The position numbers were made by a program, and so were the translations under genes. Source: a virus. Taken from it: 64,000 nucleotides of DNA. Positions 47,244 through 55,421 of this stretch are shown in pieces. The stretch covers positions 1 through 64,000 of the IMG/VR virus record IMGVR_UViG_3300046501_000132; one strand, 5' to 3'. The notes below the pieces were generated by a model that saw nothing but the letters and a program-made list of their open reading frames with translations, was not told the DNA's origin and searched no databases. Numbering within the stretch: the stretch's first letter is position 1; each line of letters opens with the position of its first letter.

Positions 47244-48698
47244 CTAGGTACGGGCGCGGTTGCGAACTTCGTCAAACGTTGGGATATATTCCCGTTCGCC
47301 ATCACAGTAGTACATCTTCCATCCATCCGTATCGCGGAAGACGCTGAACCCGTTGCCCGCCACAGTTTCAATCTGACCGTTCACCAATGCAGTATGGGCC
47401 AGGCCGGACAGCGACTTCTTACTGGAGTCAGTCTTGGGTTCCTTCAGGAGATTTACCCAACCCAGTTCCTCATCGTAGCGGGCAGTTGCCTTCATCGAGA
47501 ATGAGAACTCATCGCGGCCAGGACCATGAGTCATACCACCGCCCATACCAAAGGTCAGGTTATCCATCGAGTAATCAGCAGCCAGCAGATTGTCGATGAT
47601 CTGGGGAATACTGATGTGGTTGATACCATCGCCTTGGATAACCCGGAACGAGGGATGCAGAACCTTATACCCTGCGTCGTTCTTGGTCGAACCAACCTTC
47701 TCATCGATCAGACGGATGATTTCAATCGGCTTGGTAAGCGGGTTGCCGGAATCCGGGCGAGCAACCATCACGCCGCCAGAGGCAATAATACGGTCCCTCA
47801 GCTTACCACACAGATATTCACCGACGAAACGCTCATCGTCATAGGTGTCAATCACCACAGACTGGAGAGGAATACCGATACCTCGCTTGGTACGCGCCAC
47901 AGCTTCTTCCAGACGTTCAACCGACATTACAGCAGCGCCCCAGTCATCCTTATTGGCCGCATCTGAGTGTGAGCACATCACACTATGTTCCGTAGCATCA
48001 ACCGAACTAAACACCGGCTTGAACGTCCGGTAGATAGCCTTGATATAGGCGTTGGCTTGCAGGCAGTCAGAACCGGAGAACAGGAATCCGTGGGCGATTG
48101 CCGCAATGATTGCCGAATCGTTACCATCCGCGCCGCGATCACCGAAGTTGTGCAGCTTATACTCCAGCATGCTCATATCGGCCCCAGATTCTTGCATTGC
48201 CGCTTGAATCTTCTTGTAGCAGTAGCGGCTCATCGTGGCTACTGTGGTCATCTTCCACATGATACGCTGCACGACGGTTTCCACGTAGGACACAAGCCAG
48301 AAGAAACGTTCATCCGAGTTTACGATACCCAGGATCGGAGTATTGGGTTTCACCACCGTGCCTTCTTCCACGCCGAACACCTCCAGCGGTAGACGGCCAT
48401 CATACTCATTGGTGATGATTTCCCAGTCAGCTCGGTTGAACTCATAACCATATTGGTTGACTTCAACTTCAGCTTCATCGATCATTTCCTGAGTGATACG
48501 CACGTTTGCCAGAACAGCGGCAACCAGGGAAGCGCCAGCAGACACGATGCGATCGGTATACGACGAAGCCTTGCGCGGCACCACAGTTGAATAGATGAGC
48601 TTCGTGCCCTCGGGATATTCTGCGAAGTGGTGCAATTTATAGCTATCACAAGCGAGGATAAAGTTGCCCGGAACCAGATCATTAACGGATACAGTCAT
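47244..48698 (-). CDS. nadV: nicotinamide phosphoribosyltransferase (ends in TAG)
   Basis: DSYKLHH, LHNFGDRG, ATEHS, VIDTYD, RPDSG, IQGDG, FGMGG. Confidence 0.92.
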   Translation of the reverse strand: MTVSVNDLVPGNFILACDSYKLHHFAEYPEGTKLIYSTVVPRKASSYTDRIVSAGASLVAAVLANVRITQEMIDEAEVEVNQYGYEFNRADWEIITNEYDGRLPLEVFGVEEGTVVKPNTPILGIVNSDERFFWLVSYVETVVQRIMWKMTTVATMSRYCYKKIQAAMQESGADMSMLEYKLHNFGDRGADGNDSAIIAAIAHGFLFSGSDCLQANAYIKAIYRTFKPVFSSVDATEHSVMCSHSDAANKDDWGAAVMSVERLEEAVARTKRGIGIPLQSVVIDTYDDERFVGEYLCGKLRDRIIASGGVMVARPDSGNPLTKPIEIIRLIDEKVGSTKNDAGYKVLHPSFRVIQGDGINHISIPQIIDNLLAADYSMDNLTFGMGGGMTHGPGRDEFSFSMKATARYDEELGWVNLLKEPKTDSSKKSLSGLAHTALVNGQIETVAGNGFSVFRDTDGWKMYYCDGEREYIPTFDEVRNRART

Positions 48699-48723
48699 TT
48701 GTTTCTCTTTTCTCTTTGGTAGA

Positions 48724-49779
48724 TTACTTCAACATTTCCTTGACCATAAAAACGTGGTCATCGTAACTTTCGGTCTGGATATCATCCAGGGCATTGATCT
48801 TGACCCAACGGTGACCAACCGCATCATCAGCCGGGTAGACCTCCGGACGCTCATCGAACATCGCGGTAACATCATACAACACTGCAAGAGTCGCACGCGG
48901 AATACCCAACGAACGGCTAGGGTCATCAAACAGCTTCTCTTTGACTTTACACTTCGCCAGCACGTCAGGCGGAATGTTCAGTCGGGCTTCTTCGTACAAC
49001 TCGCGCTCGGCGGCTTGAGCAAATGTCTCGTTTCGATTCTTGAACCCACCTGCCAGCGCCAGACAACCCTTACCAGGAGCCGCGCCGCGAACGATGAACA
49101 GAATCTCATCTTGCCAACGGACAATTGCGTCACCGCAATTGAAGGTCAGGGTTTCCGGGAAAGGATAGTCCTTGAACCGTTCAGTTTCCCGTTGGTAGAA
49201 GTGCCATTCCTTCTGGAGATTACTATCAATCAACTGTCGATCCATGAAGTCGGCAGTTTCCCGACTGATGAAACCTTGTTCGATGAACCGCAGAAGGAAA
49301 ACATCCGTCTGAAGACCTTCAAACCAAGCTTCCCGCAACCGAGTCGCGCAGAAGTCGGATTCATCGACTTCGGTCAGCGATTGCTTCCACTCCGGGAACA
49401 ACTTGTAGTAGAATGTAGATGCGTCCTTGTCGCAACCATACACCGTCACATCACTCGGATGATCAACATACGGGTGCACCAGTTGCTTCGCACGATCAGC
49501 CCAAGCATCGTTGTCATATGGCTCATCAATCAGCGGGCGATACACGATTCGGACATCACTCAAAATCCGACCATCGACATACGCGGATTGGACATTCGCT
49601 TCGATCATATCCACCGTTTCGTAATACGTGAACGGATTCTTGATTGAAACGCGACGATTGCTCGAACCGATCAGGATCATCACCCGGTCATTCTCACTCG
49701 CGGCCCGGATGATATGATCCATGTGGAACTTGTGAAACCCACGGAACCGTCCGATCACAACACCAACTTTACTTCCCAT
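48724..49779 (-). CDS. natV: bifunctional NMN adenylyltransferase / Nudix hydrolase (NadM-Nudix)
   Basis: GRFRGFHKFH, KNPFT; Nudix box GG..NRNETFAQAAERELYEEA. Confidence 0.9.
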   Translation of the reverse strand: MGSKVGVVIGRFRGFHKFHMDHIIRAASENDRVMILIGSSNRRVSIKNPFTYYETVDMIEANVQSAYVDGRILSDVRIVYRPLIDEPYDNDAWADRAKQLVHPYVDHPSDVTVYGCDKDASTFYYKLFPEWKQSLTEVDESDFCATRLREAWFEGLQTDVFLLRFIEQGFISRETADFMDRQLIDSNLQKEWHFYQRETERFKDYPFPETLTFNCGDAIVRWQDEILFIVRGAAPGKGCLALAGGFKNRNETFAQAAERELYEEARLNIPPDVLAKCKVKEKLFDDPSRSLGIPRATLAVLYDVTAMFDERPEVYPADDAVGHRWVKINALDDIQTESYDDHVFMVKEMLK

Positions 49780-50028: not shown

Positions 50029-50052
50029 GCCCCTCAGATTTCTCTGAGGGGC
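50029..50052 (-). terminator. terminator of the tRNA array
   Basis: gcccctcaga-gaaa-tctgaggggc then ATTTT. Confidence 0.8.
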
Positions 50053-50068
50053 TATGAACTACTATGTA

Positions 50069-50161
50069 TGGCGGTATGAGGTAGGATTTGAACCCACGCG
50101 GGAGCTTTCACTCCGTTGGTTTTGGAGACCAATGCCATCGACCGGACTAGGCGACTCACCC
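50069..50161 (-). tRNA. tRNA with CCA (Trp) anticodon on a class II, Ser-like body
   Basis: ttggt-CT CCA AA-accaa; long variable arm; G73; encoded CCA. Confidence 0.75.
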
Positions 50162-50170
50162 TTTGAAACT

Positions 50171-50245
50171 TGGTACTGCGTGCGGGAATTGAACCCGCCT
50201 TACCGGGTTGAAAACCCGATGTCCTAACCGATAGACGAACGCAGT
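50171..50245 (-). tRNA. tRNA-Glu(TTC)
   Basis: Cloverleaf, encoded CCA. Confidence 0.9.
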
Positions 50246-50250
50246 ATATT

Positions 50251-50346
50251 TGGCCCACATCCTAGGATTCGAACCTAGATTTAACCCAATCGGAATCGAA
50301 CCGATTAGCCTCCGCGCGCTGTGAGGCTGCCGTCCAGCTGATGTGG
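50251..50346 (-). ncRNA. tRNA-like RNA with two T-arms
   Basis: Acceptor ccacatc/gatgtgg+GCCA; T-arms aatcgg-TTCGATT-ccgatt and ctagg-TTCGAAT-cctag. Confidence 0.65.
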
Positions 50347-50355
50347 TATGAAATC

Positions 50356-50433
50356 TGGTGGACCAGGTCGGATTCGAACCGACAACCCTCTGCTTGCAAA
50401 GCAGTTGCTCTACCCAATTGGAGCTACAAGCCC
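50356..50433 (-). tRNA. tRNA-Ala(TGC)
   Basis: G3:U70 pair, cloverleaf, CCA. Confidence 0.92.
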
Positions 50434-50472
50434 ATATCCCGTTTATTTAACGTGTACCGGGGAACACAAACT

Positions 50473-50566
50473 TGGCGGAGACTGTGAGGCTTGAACTCAC
50501 ACACCCATTTCTGAGCCTTCGACTTTCAAGGTCGCTGCCGCTAGGCCACACTCGGCTAAAGTCTCC
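50473..50566 (-). tRNA. tRNA-Ser(TGA)
   Basis: Long variable arm, G73, CCA. Confidence 0.88.
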
Positions 50567-50675
50567 ATATTATTTGAAGGGTGGGAGCATACCCCACTTG
50601 CGCCTCTTATCGATTTACAGGCTCTGACGCACTCAACGCTGACTAGCCGTCTGCTTTCGGCATTTCCTTCAAATT

Positions 50676-50751
50676 TGGCAGCCCCACTAGGGATCGAACC
50701 TAGAATCCAGGAGTCAAAGTCCTGTGTTATAACCAGTTTAACTATAGAGCA
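50676..50751 (-). tRNA. tRNA-Gln(TTG)
   Basis: cagga-CT TTG AC-tcctg, CCA. Confidence 0.88.
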
Positions 50752-50762
50752 ATTGATCTTAC

Positions 50763-51011
50763 TTACATCTTTGCGAGAATCTCGTATTCCCGAATAAGAA
50801 ACACGGTTTCGCCATCCACCACTGTCCGCTTGGCCTCAGCCCAATTCGGAACAATTACATCATCAATCTCGATGAGTCCGGCGCTTACTTCATCACCAAC
50901 AGCGATTACCTTACCATAAGTGGCAGTGTTAGTGCTCGTGATGATAAGAGTGGTACTTTGCGCTTCAACCTTTACTTCGGTAAAGGCAACATTATCAAAA
51001 AGTGGCTTCAT
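50763..51011 (-). CDS. groES: GroES-like co-chaperonin
   Basis: MKPLFDNV...GKVIAVG...VVDGETVFLIREYEILA. Confidence 0.8.
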   Translation of the reverse strand: MKPLFDNVAFTEVKVEAQSTTLIITSTNTATYGKVIAVGDEVSAGLIEIDDVIVPNWAEAKRTVVDGETVFLIREYEILAKM

Positions 51012-51032
51012 TTATGTTCCATTTAAAATTCT

Positions 51033-51109
51033 TGGTGCCCCCGGAGAGATTTGAACTCCCGACCCTCCGCTTACAAGGCGGACGCTCTGGCCAGCTGAGC
51101 TACAAGGGC
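51033..51109 (-). tRNA. tRNA-Thr(TGT)
   Basis: Cloverleaf, CCA. Confidence 0.92.
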
Positions 51110-51164
51110 ATAGACCGATTTTTAACGTTGCTACGGTCGTCAACGCTTCCCATCCCTGAGAATT

Positions 51165-51249
51165 TGGTGCGAGCGGAGAGACTTGAACTCTCAATCCCGA
51201 AGGCCACGGCTTCTAAGACCGTTGCGTATGCCAATTCCGCCACGCTCGC
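51165..51249 (-). tRNA. tRNA-Leu(TAG)
   Basis: Long variable arm, A73, CCA. Confidence 0.92.
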
Positions 51250-51347
51250 AAATATAGGAGGGAACCAGTAACTTCGGGGAACTGGCGCCGCGATCATCCC
51301 TCTCAGCGGTCTTCATTTGCAAGTCCAATGGTGGCCAGGCAAATTCT

Positions 51348-51698
51348 TTACAACGGGAATTTCTTCCCAGCGCTAATCAACGCTTTCTTCTTGATCTTGA
51401 AGCTCGTACTTTCTTGTCCACCAAACATCTTACAGTTGGCGATTATCTCAGCCCAAGCAGTAAAATATAAGGATGGAGCTAGAGGATGTTTCCAAAGATT
51501 AACAATATCATCACCCTTCAGTGTATGGAACTCCATATCCTTTAAGATGAGTATTGCCGTCTCAAGATCGTCCGGCCAGATCGTAAAGTATTGAGCACAA
51601 GAATACTTAGCGTGATCAGGAAAACGTTGCTTACCATCTTCTCCCACGACTCTAGCTAGATGCTTACCGCAATCGTGGTAAATATGATACTGCTTCAA
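51348..51698 (-). CDS. hypothetical protein (HD-like, HIYHDCGK)
   Basis: TTG start with SD AAGGA. Confidence 0.6.
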   Translation of the reverse strand: MKQYHIYHDCGKHLARVVGEDGKQRFPDHAKYSCAQYFTIWPDDLETAILILKDMEFHTLKGDDIVNLWKHPLAPSLYFTAWAEIIANCKMFGGQESTSFKIKKKALISAGKKFPL

Positions 51699-51740
51699 AT
51701 CCTTAATGTAATGTTTAGTCCGTTCATATATCTCTCCGAT

Positions 51741-51905
51741 CTACGGAGGAAGATCAATGATTTGCTCACCACCCTCAAGCTGATTAATCAACTCTTGGTA
51801 CGCCTCGTGAACCGCGTTTCCGTGATCCAACATATTCATCGTTTCGAACTGGTAGCAATTACTCATCGCTTCTTTCAGTTCGTATAGAGATTTAGCTAGC
51901 TGCAT
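51741..51905 (-). CDS. small hypothetical protein (MQLAKSLYE...; ends in TAG)
   Basis: Start moved to ATG 51905 to avoid long overlap with the Pth2-like gene. Confidence 0.5.
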   Translation of the reverse strand: MQLAKSLYELKEAMSNCYQFETMNMLDHGNAVHEAYQELINQLEGGEQIIDLPP

Positions 51906-52239
51906 TTGGACCCTTCCAGAGTTTATACTTACTGAACGTCTTACGTTGCTCAGCCGTGATCGGTTCAGTTGCGAAAGAAGTGAATCCATAATCCCAATCA
52001 GGCTCATAGAAGGCTTCACATCGAATCCCACGATCAATAGTACGTTTCATTGCTACCTCCAACTTTTCCTTATTAGGAATTTGGAGCATAATCAACGAGG
52101 AAGGTTCATTTGACTTTCTATCAAATGAATGACCGGCTTCTAGCGCGGCGTGACAAGCCTGAACGATCTGCTGTTCAATCGGCAAGTCGGTACGGATGAA
52201 AACATACACCCAAGTCTTTTCAGCGTTCTACGATTTCAT
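51892..52239 (-). CDS. Pth2-like peptidyl-tRNA hydrolase with in-frame TAG at codon 4 (52228-52230)
   Basis: YVFIRTDL..QIVQACHAA..LIMLQI..FYEPD..TSFATEP Pth2 pattern; ATG AAA TCG TAG AAC GCT GAA AAG ACT TGG GTG TAT in frame. Confidence 0.72.
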
Positions 52240-52279
52240 TTCTATCTCACTTTGTTTAACTACATTAAAACCAAATATA

Positions 52280-52355
52280 TGGTGGCTCGTACCGGGATCG
52301 AACCGGTGACCAGCGGATTTAGAATCCACCGCTCTACCAACTGAGCTAACGAGCC
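52280..52355 (-). tRNA. amber suppressor tRNA (anticodon CTA), Phe/Lys-like body
   Basis: 76-nt canonical cloverleaf; gtgga-TT CTA AA-tccgc; anticodon at 52320-52322; A73, CCA. Confidence 0.9.
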
Positions 52356-52365
52356 ATTATATATT

Positions 52366-52451
52366 TGGTACCTCGGGTGGGATTCGAACCCACACTCCCT
52401 TTCGGGAAGGGGATTTTGAATCCCCCGCGTCTACCGTTCCGCCACCAAGGC
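52366..52451 (-). tRNA. tRNA-Leu(CAA)
   Basis: Long variable arm, CCA. Confidence 0.92.
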
Positions 52452-52453
52452 AA

Positions 52454-52532
52454 TGGTCTGGGTGGTAGGATTTGAACCTACGACCTCCTAGTTCCAAACC
52501 AGGCCGTCTGACCAGACTGACATTACACCCAG
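52454..52532 (-). tRNA. tRNA-Pro(TGG)
   Basis: C1-G72, cloverleaf, CCA. Confidence 0.9.
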
Positions 52533-52541
52533 ATAAAACTT

Positions 52542-52621
52542 TGATCCTCTTTGTGGGCATCGAACCCACGTCTCCAGCGCATCAACGCCCCGGTATGCTA
52601 TCCATCTACACCATCAGAGGA
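52542..52621 (-). ncRNA. pseudo-tRNA / tRNA-like RNA with irregular anticodon arm and no CCA
   Basis: Acceptor tcctct/agagga; T-arm gtggg-TTCGATG-cccac; D-like arm. Confidence 0.55.
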
Positions 52622-52629
52622 TTAAAACT

Positions 52630-52705
52630 TGGCCCCGCCCTCAGGTTACGATCCTGACCCTCAAGCTTTTCAAGCATGCGCTTCCACCAGGTTAGCTTGA
52701 GCGGG
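52630..52705 (-). tRNA. tRNA-Phe(GAA), non-canonical T-loop
   Basis: TT GAA AA loop; T-loop ATCGTAA; G73; CCA. Confidence 0.75.
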
Positions 52706-52712
52706 ATAAAAC

Positions 52713-52785
52713 TGGATGCGGGCGCAGGTAACGATCCTGCTTCCATCAAGGCTTATGAGACCTGAGTCCACCACTGGAACCCGCA
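52713..52785 (-). tRNA. tRNA with CAT anticodon (Met/fMet/Ile2 unresolved), truncated D-arm
   Basis: CT CAT AA loop; T-loop ATCGTTA; CCA. Confidence 0.7.
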
Positions 52786-52793
52786 TTTGAAAC

Positions 52794-52869
52794 TGGTACA
52801 GACTGTAGGGATCGAACCTACGACAGCCATCTTGTAAGGATGGAACTCTACCAACTGAGCTAAGTCTGC
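52794..52869 (-). tRNA. tRNA-Val(TAC)
   Basis: Cloverleaf, CCA. Confidence 0.92.
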
Positions 52870-52878
52870 ATTAAAACT

Positions 52879-52955
52879 TGGTGGATGTACTAGGACTTGA
52901 ACCTAGAACCTTCCGGGTAAGAGCCGGATACTCTATCCAATTGAGTTACACATCC
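52879..52955 (-). tRNA. tRNA-Lys(CTT)
   Basis: tccgg-CT CTT AC-ccgga, CCA. Confidence 0.9.
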
Positions 52956-53170
52956 ATATTACGATTGAGACACCCAGGCCCTTGTTGTAGTGGTAGGGGC
53001 TTAACCTACCGGCAATAGAGTCCAGACTTTGCCGCAATACATTCTCGGGCATCTCAAAACCTTAAATTCCTGGTTGATCTTGCGACTAAACGCCACTCCC
53101 ATCTTGAACCGGACCAACCACCGGTACAGAGTGTCATCATATCCTAGTCGTCACTAGGACAAAGAATCTT

Positions 53171-53407
53171 GCCAATAATTTTGCTAACTGCCTCAGACCG
53201 CCACAACATCGGTCTTCATTATCCGGAAATTTTCGCGCGTCCGGTGGTGCAATTGCTTGCTTTGATGTATGCTACTTGGGGCCTACTTATCGTCTCTCCA
53301 GAGATACGCGGGAATCGAACCCGTCAATTTTCTCAAATCTCTGACTCTGCAGAAGTCTCGGAAAAGGATTTGGTACCTTGCTAGTAACAGTTAGCAAAAT
53401 TATTGGC
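53171..53407 (-). ncRNA. candidate RNA closed by a perfect 20-bp inverted repeat, with an internal T-arm
   Basis: IR 53171-53190/53388-53407; cggg-TTCGATT-cccg at 53309-53323. Confidence 0.5.
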
Positions 53408-53482
53408 TCCGCATCTGAGTAACGATCTCAGCTAATCTCTGATTAACAGTCAGGTCCGTGCACCATGCTCGAATTCTGCGGA
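53404..53482 (-). tRNA. tRNA-Asn(GTT), non-canonical D- and T-arms
   Basis: CT GTT AA loop; G73; T-loop ATCGTTA; CCA. Confidence 0.75.
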
Positions 53483-53500
53483 ACAGCACAAAACTACTTA

Positions 53501-53575
53501 GGGGTGACTAGTCGGACTTGAACCGACACTTACCTGACTCACAATCAGGTTCTCTACCGATTGAGATATAGCCAC
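53501..53575 (-). tRNA. tRNA-His(GTG), full CCA not encoded
   Basis: cctga-TT GTG AG-tcagg; C73. Confidence 0.85.
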
Positions 53576-53599
53576 ACCTAAGCACTCTTGTAGAATTAC

Positions 53600-53716
53600 T
53601 TAGGGAACATCTTTTTCTTGTACTTCGCGCCTCAACAGCCACTCCACCAACCCACGACTGATAAAGGCAAACAACAACCAAATACCTAGGAACCAACAAG
53701 CTTCAGTCTTTTCCAT
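53600..53716 (-). CDS. 38-aa membrane peptide (MEKTEACWFLGIWLLFAF...)
   Basis: Manual translation; overlaps end of upstream ORF. Confidence 0.4.
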   Translation of the reverse strand: MEKTEACWFLGIWLLFAFISRGLVEWLLRREVQEKDVP

Positions 53717-53891
53717 TCATTCGGTCAAACCACTCTTTCGTACACTGAGGATATTGTCTCAGAAACTCAGCGTTAGATTGTTTATACAACTTCTCAACTA
53801 GCTTGCTATCTTTCTTCTCAACCTTCGCGTCATAGACAGCGGTGCCTTTGGCAAACTCGATGTCTCTGACCCAAACCGACCTACTAGCCAT
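53703..53891 (-). CDS. small hypothetical protein (MASRSVWVRD...)
   Basis: Start moved to ATG 53891, outside the tRNA. Confidence 0.6.
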   Translation of the reverse strand: MASRSVWVRDIEFAKGTAVYDAKVEKKDSKLVEKLYKQSNAEFLRQYPQCTKEWFDRMNGKD

Positions 53892-53903
53892 CTTTCTAAT
53901 CCT

Positions 53904-53980
53904 TGGTTGGAGCACTGGGATTTGAACCCAGAACTTTCCGGGTAAAAGCCGGATACTCTATCCAGTTGAGTTATACTCCA
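53904..53980 (-). tRNA. tRNA-Lys(TTT)
   Basis: tccgg-CT TTT AC-ccgga, CCA. Confidence 0.9.
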
Positions 53981-53986
53981 TTTAAC

Positions 53987-54063
53987 TGGAGCGGGTGACA
54001 GGATTCGAACCTGCGACGAACTGCTTGGAAGGCAGACACTCTACCGAGCTGAGTTACACCCGC
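53987..54063 (-). tRNA. tRNA-Gly(TCC)
   Basis: U73, cloverleaf, CCA. Confidence 0.92.
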
Positions 54064-54070
54064 ATAAAAC

Positions 54071-54148
54071 TGGCGTCCCCACCGGGGGTCAAACCCGGTT
54101 CTCGTCCTTGAAAGGGACGGGTTCTAATCTACCGTAAACTACAGGGAC
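54071..54148 (-). tRNA. tRNA-Glu(TTC), second copy
   Basis: cgtcc-CT TTC AA-ggacg, CCA. Confidence 0.85.
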
Positions 54149-54157
54149 TTAAAACTT

Positions 54158-54234
54158 TGGCGACACGTAGGGGATTCGAACCCCTGACCTTCGGATAGAC
54201 AATCCACTGCTCTACCAGCCTGAGCTAACGTGCC
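54158..54234 (-). tRNA. tRNA-Asp(GTC)
   Basis: TT GTC TA loop (U37), G73, CCA. Confidence 0.88.
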
Positions 54235-54277
54235 GTATTTCTTTCTCGCTTCGTATTACTACTTAGTCGATGTAATA

Positions 54278-54306
54278 ATTATAACCCCGACTATGTGATA
54301 AGTAAA
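54278..54306 (-). promoter_or_regulatory. internal promoter of the tRNA array, TTTACT-N17-TATAAT
   Basis: -10 at 54278-54283, -35 at 54301-54306. Confidence 0.75.
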
Positions 54307-54313
54307 ATGAATC

Positions 54314-54388
54314 TGGAGTGGGTAACTGGATTCTAACCAGTGTAGCAAGGTTTTGCAGACCTGCACCTAAACACTCGGACACACCCAC
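54314..54388 (-). tRNA. tRNA-Cys(GCA)
   Basis: CT GCA AA loop, U73, CCA. Confidence 0.85.
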
Positions 54389-54491
54389 ATAAATGATAGG
54401 CCGGTGGGGTGTCAGCAATAACCCTTACCCAAGGGTCCGTGTTTCCCATCCTCCGTTTACTTTCCTTACCTATCGGGACTTGCATGCAACT

Positions 54492-54579
54492 TGGCGGAAG
54501 ATGAAGGATTCGAACCTTCGTGCCGTTTCCAACGCGCTCCTTAGCAGGGAGGCCCAATAAGCCACTCTGGCAATCTTCC
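54492..54579 (-). tRNA. tRNA-Ser(GCT)
   Basis: Long variable arm, G73, CCA. Confidence 0.9.
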
Positions 54580-54580
54580 T

Positions 54581-54745
54581 TTACTCACTATGAAACTTAT
54601 CAACCATTCGATTGAATTTCTTCTTGAATGATCGCATCACACGCTTGCGGGATTTCCTTGGAGGACAACAGCATCGGCAATGCCAACCACCGCCTCCAAT
54701 ACAAGCGTGTACCATTTTCATAAAACAGCCTTTCTCTTTCATCAT
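54581..54745 (-). CDS. 54-aa Cys-rich basic protein (…IGGGGWHCRCCCPPRKSRKR…)
   Basis: Manual translation; SD GGAG; below ORF-track cutoff. Confidence 0.6.
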   Translation of the reverse strand: MMKEKGCFMKMVHACIGGGGWHCRCCCPPRKSRKRVMRSFKKKFNRMVDKFHSE

Positions 54746-54794
54746 GATCTCCATTTGGTGTTATACCTAATGTCGCATCATAATCTCCTAATCT

Positions 54795-54882
54795 TGGAGG
54801 AAAGTCAGGGATTCGAACCCTGGAACCCTTTCGGGTTTCTTGCTTTCTAGACAAGTGCAATCGACCGCTCTGCCAACCTTCC
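54795..54882 (-). tRNA. tRNA-Ser(AGA), A34 anticodon
   Basis: cttgt-CT AGA AA-gcaag; long variable arm; CCA. Confidence 0.85.
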
Positions 54883-54932
54883 AAAACCCAAACGCATCCT
54901 CTACCGCGAAGAATTGCCCAGGTGTTATAATC

Positions 54933-55007
54933 TGGTACCGGGTAGTGGATTCGAACCACTGACCTAACGATTATCGATCGTTTGCACTACCGCTGTGCTA
55001 ACCCGGT
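54933..55007 (-). tRNA. tRNA-Ile(GAT) with C33
   Basis: aacga-TC GAT AA-tcgtt, CCA. Confidence 0.88.
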
Positions 55008-55009
55008 AT

Positions 55010-55126
55010 TGGCGAATACGTATGGAATTGAACCAATCTGTGGAACGTGATCACCTGGAAGGACAGACGCCTGTTTTGTCACTTCCCCACATTTCTCTAT
55101 GATCCTAGACCCTCGTCACATATTCG
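55010..55126 (-). ncRNA. 117-nt tRNA-like RNA with greatly extended anticodon arm
   Basis: cgaatatg/cgtattcg+CCA; T-arm tgg-TTCAATT-cca; long tgtgggg/ttccaca arm. Confidence 0.6.
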
Positions 55127-55132
55127 TAAAAC

Positions 55133-55208
55133 TGGTAGTAATGGACGGATTCGAACCGCCGACCAATTCCGTATGAAGGAACTGCTCTACCAACTGAGCT
55201 ACATTACC
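55133..55208 (-). tRNA. tRNA-Met(CAT), elongator-type
   Basis: TT CAT AC loop, A73, CCA. Confidence 0.9.
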
Positions 55209-55332
55209 ATAGAAGTGACCCAAGTTTTAGGATAATAGACACCGCTTCTACCATCGTCGTTCTATCATTTTATCTCCATAACAACAATAGACACTTTGGC
55301 GATGGTCAAGGCCAGTCACTTATATTTACATC

Positions 55333-55421
55333 TGGTGGGGACGGTAGGACTCGAACCTACAGCGTTTCTTATGTCACAGATTTACAGTCTGCTGCCTTCG
55401 ACCAATTCGGCACACATCCCC
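55333..55421 (-). tRNA. tRNA-Tyr(GTA)
   Basis: CT GTA AA loop, long variable arm, CCA. Confidence 0.9.

Follow-up and report, generated by a model that had tools for sequence, protein, structure and literature searches.

An early stop in a translation factor gene is known from prfB, encoding release factor 2 (RF2), whose autoregulatory +1 frameshift relies on a slippery codon and an internal Shine-Dalgarno (SD) sequence and uses no dedicated tRNA. In Streptomyces, the bldA tRNA reads the rare sense codon TTA in a genome-wide regulon, and the laboratory +1 frameshift suppressor tRNAs sufD and sufJ have an enlarged anticodon loop. Phages with recoded stop codons (code 15 or 4) carry suppressor tRNAs that have been proposed to gate translation (bioRxiv 10.1101/2021.08.26.457843). 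Phage PTH2 is listed in a review of jumbo phages, without mention of suppressors or gating (PMC7824862), and the authors who described phage XacN1 found no target for its amber tRNAs (PMC5852040). Here we analyze a locus in the first 64,000 nucleotides (the window) of the IMG/VR virus record IMGVR_UViG_3300046501_000132, a T4-like phage genome of 170,684 bp, in which a suppressor tRNA with the anticodon CUA accompanies two overlapping genes, for a Pth2-like and an HD-domain protein, each interrupted by one in-frame TAG. We consider it very probable that these stops are a real gate.

The suppressor tRNA lies at 52280-52355 on the minus strand, as do the other parts of the module and the tRNA cluster around it. 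It was called by ARAGORN, folds as a canonical 76-nt cloverleaf (folding z -3.4) and has an Rfam tRNA score of 69.2 bits, the second best among 22 matches in the surrounding tRNA cluster; it carries an encoded CCA, A73 and A36-A37-A38, a signal for isopentenylation. Forty nucleotides separate its 3' end from the ATG at 52239, which together with a weak-to-moderate SD sequence occupies 52237-52254 and opens a Pth2-fold gene (51892-52239) of 115 codons on readthrough. Gate 1 is the TAG at codon 4 (52228-52230), followed by an A. The anti-SD pairing energy is -4.9 kcal/mol for this ATG versus -0.9 kcal/mol for a GTG at 52209, and GGAG or GAGG precedes the corresponding ATG in most relatives. All these points (the intact tRNA, the positions, spacing and frame, and the better SD of the ATG) had been read correctly in the original prediction, which took the module to consist of the tRNA and the Pth2-like gene but overlooked a second in-frame TAG. 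This TAG (gate 2, 51741-51743) is codon 55 of the HD-domain gene (51348-51905, 185 codons on readthrough). This gene begins before the Pth2-like gene has ended, with 14 nt common to both, an overlap suggesting that the two are coupled. Because gate 2 falls between the invariant H28 and H77-D78 and thus splits the predicted metal site, no restart would yield a whole HD site.

Comparison with relatives shows conserved gates, matching tRNAs, the two folds and selection. The survey comprised 255 loci (L numbers), retrieved by similarity to a gated query and grouped in 144 clusters at 80% identity. The gate is TAG in 110 clusters, TGA in four and TAA in one, and 29 have none within eight codons; among these 29, a +1 shift from an SD-led ATG is needed in ten, and another three run into an in-frame stop further on. 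In 140 genes the gate stands at codon 3 in 88 and at codon 4 in 25, and the next base is a purine in 136 of the 140, a context that favors amber suppression. The layout of an ATG, one to eight codons and a TAG ahead of the core is found in 42 of 64 stand-alone Pth2-like clusters; a comparable early TAG occurs in 4/245 genes of the window phage (a background of ∼2%), with an SD only at the Pth2-like gene, which makes chance an inadequate explanation. Gates occupy variable tails or loops, and they shift among genes and fusions, the latter in either order. The independent assemblies L059 and L060 have the same TAGs, and comparison with L059 reveals purifying selection on the coding sequence beyond the stop (dN 0.048, dS 0.97, dN/dS ∼0.05).

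Twelve cultured phages (CBB, GAP32, fHe-Yen9-04, BF, XbC2, RsoM2USA, ME3, Arash, Xoo-sp13, RAS14, XacN1, and pT24) interrupt the Pth2-like gene, or a gene in which HD and Pth2 are fused, with a TAG at its third or fourth codon. In several of them the HD gene has a further TAG, either internal or at its beginning, and all twelve encode a tRNA-CUA. In XacN1 the TAG is codon 3 of ORF364, upstream of the annotated start, and this target was probably missed because the authors looked past annotated stops. RaK2 and Hallingskeid are ungated, and a pattern search found no suppressor in them; Ralstonia phage RSP15, the nearest cultured relative by capsid (64.5%) and a weak control, lacks both genes and any suppressor recognizable by pattern. 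The tRNA adjoins the gated gene in the window, as originally described, but it is one of 25 in the cluster, and in some relatives the tRNA-CUA sits kilobases away. At L061:4421-4497, the CUA of a tRNA adjoining a TAG-gated gene lies in a loop of irregular size, 6 or 8 nt.

The type of stop and the anticodon covary. An N-terminal in-frame TAG and a tRNA-CUA occur together in relatives, as the original prediction implied: where a suppressor was seen, TAG goes with a CUA tRNA in 57 clusters. TGA is accompanied by a UCA tRNA in four clusters, beside the gene in L082 and L109 and elsewhere in the record in L090 and L162. Neither pairing has a credible mismatch. The L082 genome (G014) otherwise uses TGA as a stop, and TGA gates must have arisen two or more times according to the HD tree, a quick version with many open forks. 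Five further clusters (L073, L216, L217, L285, and L319) have a +1 four-base site and a matching tRNA with a 9-nt loop: UAGG with CCUA in L073, a complete phage without CUA or UCA tRNA in which the two are adjacent, UAGC with GCUA in L216 and L319, and the sense quadruplet CAUU with AAUG in L217 and L285. In L219, three of the four bases match between site and tRNA. These +1 cases are restricted to those checked by hand, automatic scans for 9-nt loops being noisy or empty, and the L216 tRNA could alternatively be an enlarged ordinary Ser(GCU) tRNA. The codon that precedes the +1 site varies among relatives and a matching tRNA is adjacent, for which reasons a frameshift of the prfB type was rejected. 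The TGA of L179 was counted as chance, as this gene has its own SD-led ATG downstream.

The 9-nt-loop tRNAs (L073:3416-3493, L216:2775-2864, L217:3420-3497, L219:3354-3431, L285:1967-2043, and L319:1238-1316) are labeled Arg, Ser, Ile or Asn by ARAGORN, and the four bases in the middle of the loop fit the neighboring gene's +1 site; three come from isolate genomes (L216, Pseudomonas serbica megaplasmid; L217, Bosea; L219, Psychromonas). An ochre version, in which both genes begin with ATG, one codon and TAA, is present in L315, L316, and L320, with no matching tRNA in 5.5 kb.

The 71 suppressor tRNAs compared have no common synthetase identity set, and their comparison yielded no assignment of the inserted amino acid. 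Position N73 is A in 46, G in 18 and U in six, and the anticodon stem has a mismatch in 37, whereas A38 is conserved in 70; because the bodies vary while A38 is kept, selection acts on decoding and not on the inserted residue. The body of the window tRNA (G1-C72, A73) is similar to Lys/Asn tRNAs, some close orthologues of the HD gene have a sense codon (Leu) in place of gate 2, and the Q found at the gate in database proteins is the convention of gene callers for TAG. The ARAGORN label 'Pyl' merely reflects the CUA anticodon. Pyrrolysine or another special residue was dropped as a candidate, given the canonical cloverleaf and the variable tails and loops in which TAG stands; no search for pyl genes was made.

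The rest of the genome uses the standard code. Among ∼245 genes, 141 end in TAA, 95 in TGA and nine in TAG (eight of them other genes), and reading TAG as sense adds no more open reading frame (ORF) cover than reading TGA or TAA as sense. Across 17-22 thousand residues aligned with two complete relatives, plus part of RSP15, the HD-gene TAG is the one true-frame internal stop, the remaining internal stops being antisense shadow ORFs or gene junctions. Given the flat gain, the TAG-ended genes and the single true-frame stop, genome-wide recoding was rejected, as was membership in code 15, whose hallmark of TAG readthrough in many structural and lysis genes was not seen. The original claim of local, programmed, suppressor-dependent readthrough is thus upheld. 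No further gated genes were found in a non-exhaustive codon-model scan or in a homology scan covering shared genes.

The Pth2-like readthrough product (predicted local distance difference test, pLDDT, 91) superimposes on AF2095 with Z 14.9, a root mean square deviation (rmsd) of 1.9 over 104 aligned residues and TM 0.78, in agreement with the Pth2 fold originally suspected, and keeps the R-x-D, Q-x-x-H and late Thr features; its Pfam Pth2 score, 21.1 bits, is below the cut-off of 23. The HD product (pLDDT 97) has the H...HD motif and a helical fold, and H28, D78, H98, D123, H127 and E153 are invariant in the alignment. Structurally it best matches the A-adding enzyme of Aquifex, at the HD domain (3wfo; Z 13.9, rmsd 3.1, 157 aligned), and the natural orthologue P0062 matches CCA-enzyme clusters in the ESM Atlas. 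Its nearest known counterpart is the HD domain found in class II CCA/A-adding enzymes; in Escherichia coli, this domain of the CCA enzyme takes the 2',3'-cyclic phosphate off damaged tRNA ends (PMC6961547).

The module thus has a gated gene beyond the Pth2-like one first described, and in some bacteria HD is the sole gated gene beside the tRNA. In eight melainabacterial contigs, a gated HD gene directly precedes a tRNA-CUA with no Pth2 nearby. Of five such draft genomes, four gave no Pth2-like match; the remaining one carries a Pth2-like gene that is ungated and adjoins a second tRNA-CUA. These bacteria are high-GC and have TAG-ended genes, so unchecked suppression should be costly to them. 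Ungated Pth2-like genes stand beside a CUA tRNA in L088 and L329, which fits an enzyme-substrate link. Contigs of Melainabacteria (Obscuribacterales) with a TAG-gated HD gene, tRNA-CUA and bacterial-looking neighbors are L204-L208, L210, L211, L213, and L329.

We tentatively interpret these loci, with slightly less than even confidence, as a widespread family of private decoding locks of phages and some bacteria, in which the module's own tRNA is the sole key to genes for tRNA-end enzymes, senses tRNA damage and triggers counter-defence. Full translation of both genes would need the private tRNA to mature, to receive an amino acid from a host synthetase and to outcompete termination at TAG, whatever residue it inserts. 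Readthrough would be partial, and since the overlapping genes have a gate each, HD output would depend steeply on suppression. The products would act on the tRNA acceptor end, the Pth2 fold removing blocked acyl groups and the HD protein serving as a metal hydrolase for damaged 3' ends. The private tRNA could be held mostly inactive, either discharged or trimmed by the module enzymes or losing the competition for synthetases, and would become active once normal tRNAs are blocked or damaged by drop-off, host toxins or defences; it would then release the repair enzymes, the tRNA pool would be restored and the gate would shut. Pth is known to reverse the acetylation of aminoacyl-tRNA by toxins (PMC9241777). 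We give even odds to this mechanism, a negative feedback on tRNA 3'-end upkeep, within which we infer charging, readthrough, enzyme activities and the direction of feedback. The sensed quantity would be the activity of the private tRNA and not release factor 1 (RF1), given that amber, opal and four-base locks all occur.

Several points weigh against this interpretation. Locus counts are not independent events, because a similarity search retrieved the loci and they have a common ancestry. A suppressor was unseen in the fetched flank of 53 TAG clusters, and the uncultured LR745206 is gated with no suppressor found by pattern genome-wide. The HD match is moderate in strength (Foldseek E 0.01, a Z of 13.9 for a helical fold, altered late ligands). 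In the Pth2-like subfamily the lysine of the GK motif is replaced by Gln23, and the Asp loop (D-A-G-x-T) is shortened to E79-P80-D81, with Glu at the conserved Asp position. Both elements have a catalytic role in Pth2, so the product is Pth2-like and not a proven hydrolase, and the 'full hydrolase' of the original prediction goes too far; GK is retained in the sister clade L216-L219. Moreover, uniform damage of all tRNAs would close the gate, which is the wrong direction. As for the start codon, the GTG at 52209 was said to start inside the first beta strand, and it does (codon 11, in a predicted strand of residues 10-16), but a start there costs one strand residue only, so the fold alone is a weak argument against it. 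This last point and the ungated relatives would suit broken genes with downstream starts, an assembly error or a code-15 relic, without any programmed decoding. We regard this as highly improbable, since the stops are retained while synonymous sites saturate, an ATG follows the stop in just one of the 42 gated Pth2-like clusters, an HD restart would drop H28, and the anticodons covary with the stops in a genome that otherwise uses the standard code.

Among readings that accept the gate, a timer or dose limiter without feedback is unlikely, although the least so: enzymes that do harm when overabundant or premature, such as by discharge of fMet-tRNA, would be delayed and capped until the phage tRNA is processed and charged. 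A conserved lock and key would suffice for it, weak anticodon stems are common, and it resembles the timing proposed in recoded phages (bioRxiv 10.1101/2021.08.26.457843); however, a weak ribosome site would be a cheaper cap, and the bacterial chromosomal copies and the ungated Pth2-like genes beside the tRNA are left unexplained. We find rather less probable still a positive loop in which both proteins would serve the private tRNA by maturing, charging or protecting it, the output being suppression or frameshifting itself, as host sabotage or an all-or-none switch. The absence of a synthetase identity set common to bodies and anticodons, the match of the HD fold to the tRNA-binding HD domains of GlyRS (Z 11.0) and the altered Pth2-like site speak for it, but no gated target beyond the two genes was found in the genome, and neither protein has a domain for nucleotidyl or adenylyl transfer. 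TAG-rich bacteria would pay heavily for runaway suppression, and the four-base tRNAs would have almost no host targets. The original prediction saw in gate 1 a reporter of RF1 whose unsuppressed form, a Met-Lys-Ser minigene, causes drop-off that Pth2 clears. Most gates are indeed TAG at codon 3-4, and short ORFs such as lambda bar do promote drop-off. This model is nevertheless improbable, as relatives use TGA with UCA (an RF2 codon), TAA or four-base sites (including a sense quadruplet), there is free variation in the codons ahead of the stop, HD-only modules exist and gates may be internal, such as codon 55 of the partner gene in the window.

The genome codes for 25 tRNA genes by ARAGORN, and a cluster of 24 surrounds the module (50073-55421, ARAGORN and Rfam). 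These tRNAs probably share transcripts with the module, judging from consensus matches to a promoter (54278-54306) and a terminator (50029-50052). ARAGORN left uncalled the tRNA-like stretches 52551-52630, 52713-52790, 52956-53500 and 54317-54388, some of which appear degenerate; Rfam detects the last. Just downstream of the cluster (47244-49779, minus strand), an NAD salvage pair (NAMPT-like and NadM/Nudix-like) is encoded, as in RSP15 and L061. A release-factor-like phage gene (PCRF and RF-1 domains) lies beside RtcB in some relatives (L065:7435-8118, L066:3560-4243, L147:5-601). An in-frame TGA interrupts it near codon 36 in L065 and L066 and at about the same place in L147 (43% identical), possibly an autoregulatory readthrough; tblastn with the L065 protein found no match in the window phage genome.

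These results give a target to orphan suppressor tRNAs of standard-code phages, as in XacN1, and correct many split or missing gene calls, while the cultured phages CBB, GAP32, BF, ME3, Arash, and XacN1 make the gate testable. A single regulatory design runs with amber, opal or four-base codons, and the four-base form amounts to natural quadruplet decoding. The module also supplies natural scaffolds for suppressors, and stop-codon recoding might have a route through it. As in recoded phages, a phage-encoded tRNA (here tRNA-CUA) reads a stop in a standard-code host; however, those phages interrupt many late and lysis genes and insert Gln or Trp, whereas the window module has two tRNA-enzyme genes with one stop each, a fixed early site and a variable tRNA identity, and is swappable with TGA and four-base locks. 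Like prfB, it has an early-interrupted translation-related gene with likely feedback, but both window gates are in frame. It resembles bldA in that one tRNA is the key for the genes holding its codon, although that codon is a stop or four-base codon and lies in the module's own genes. The enlarged anticodon loop of sufD and sufJ, fitting a four-base site, recurs in the four-base relatives only, whose tRNAs are natural and conserved, with 9-nt loops and a fixed target gene. The Pth2-like protein shares with Pth2 hydrolases the fold, R-x-D, Q-x-x-H and the late Thr but lacks the GK lysine and has the shorter Asp loop. The HD protein has its best structural and profile match, and a common H...HDxGK...H motif, in the class II CCA/A-adding HD domain but stands alone, without a polymerase domain, with altered late ligands and a basic C-terminal motif. 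We found no description of such a module in the literature searched, subscription papers being outside its scope. Amber suppression is known chemistry; the interchangeable lock-and-key module falls outside the families against which it was compared.
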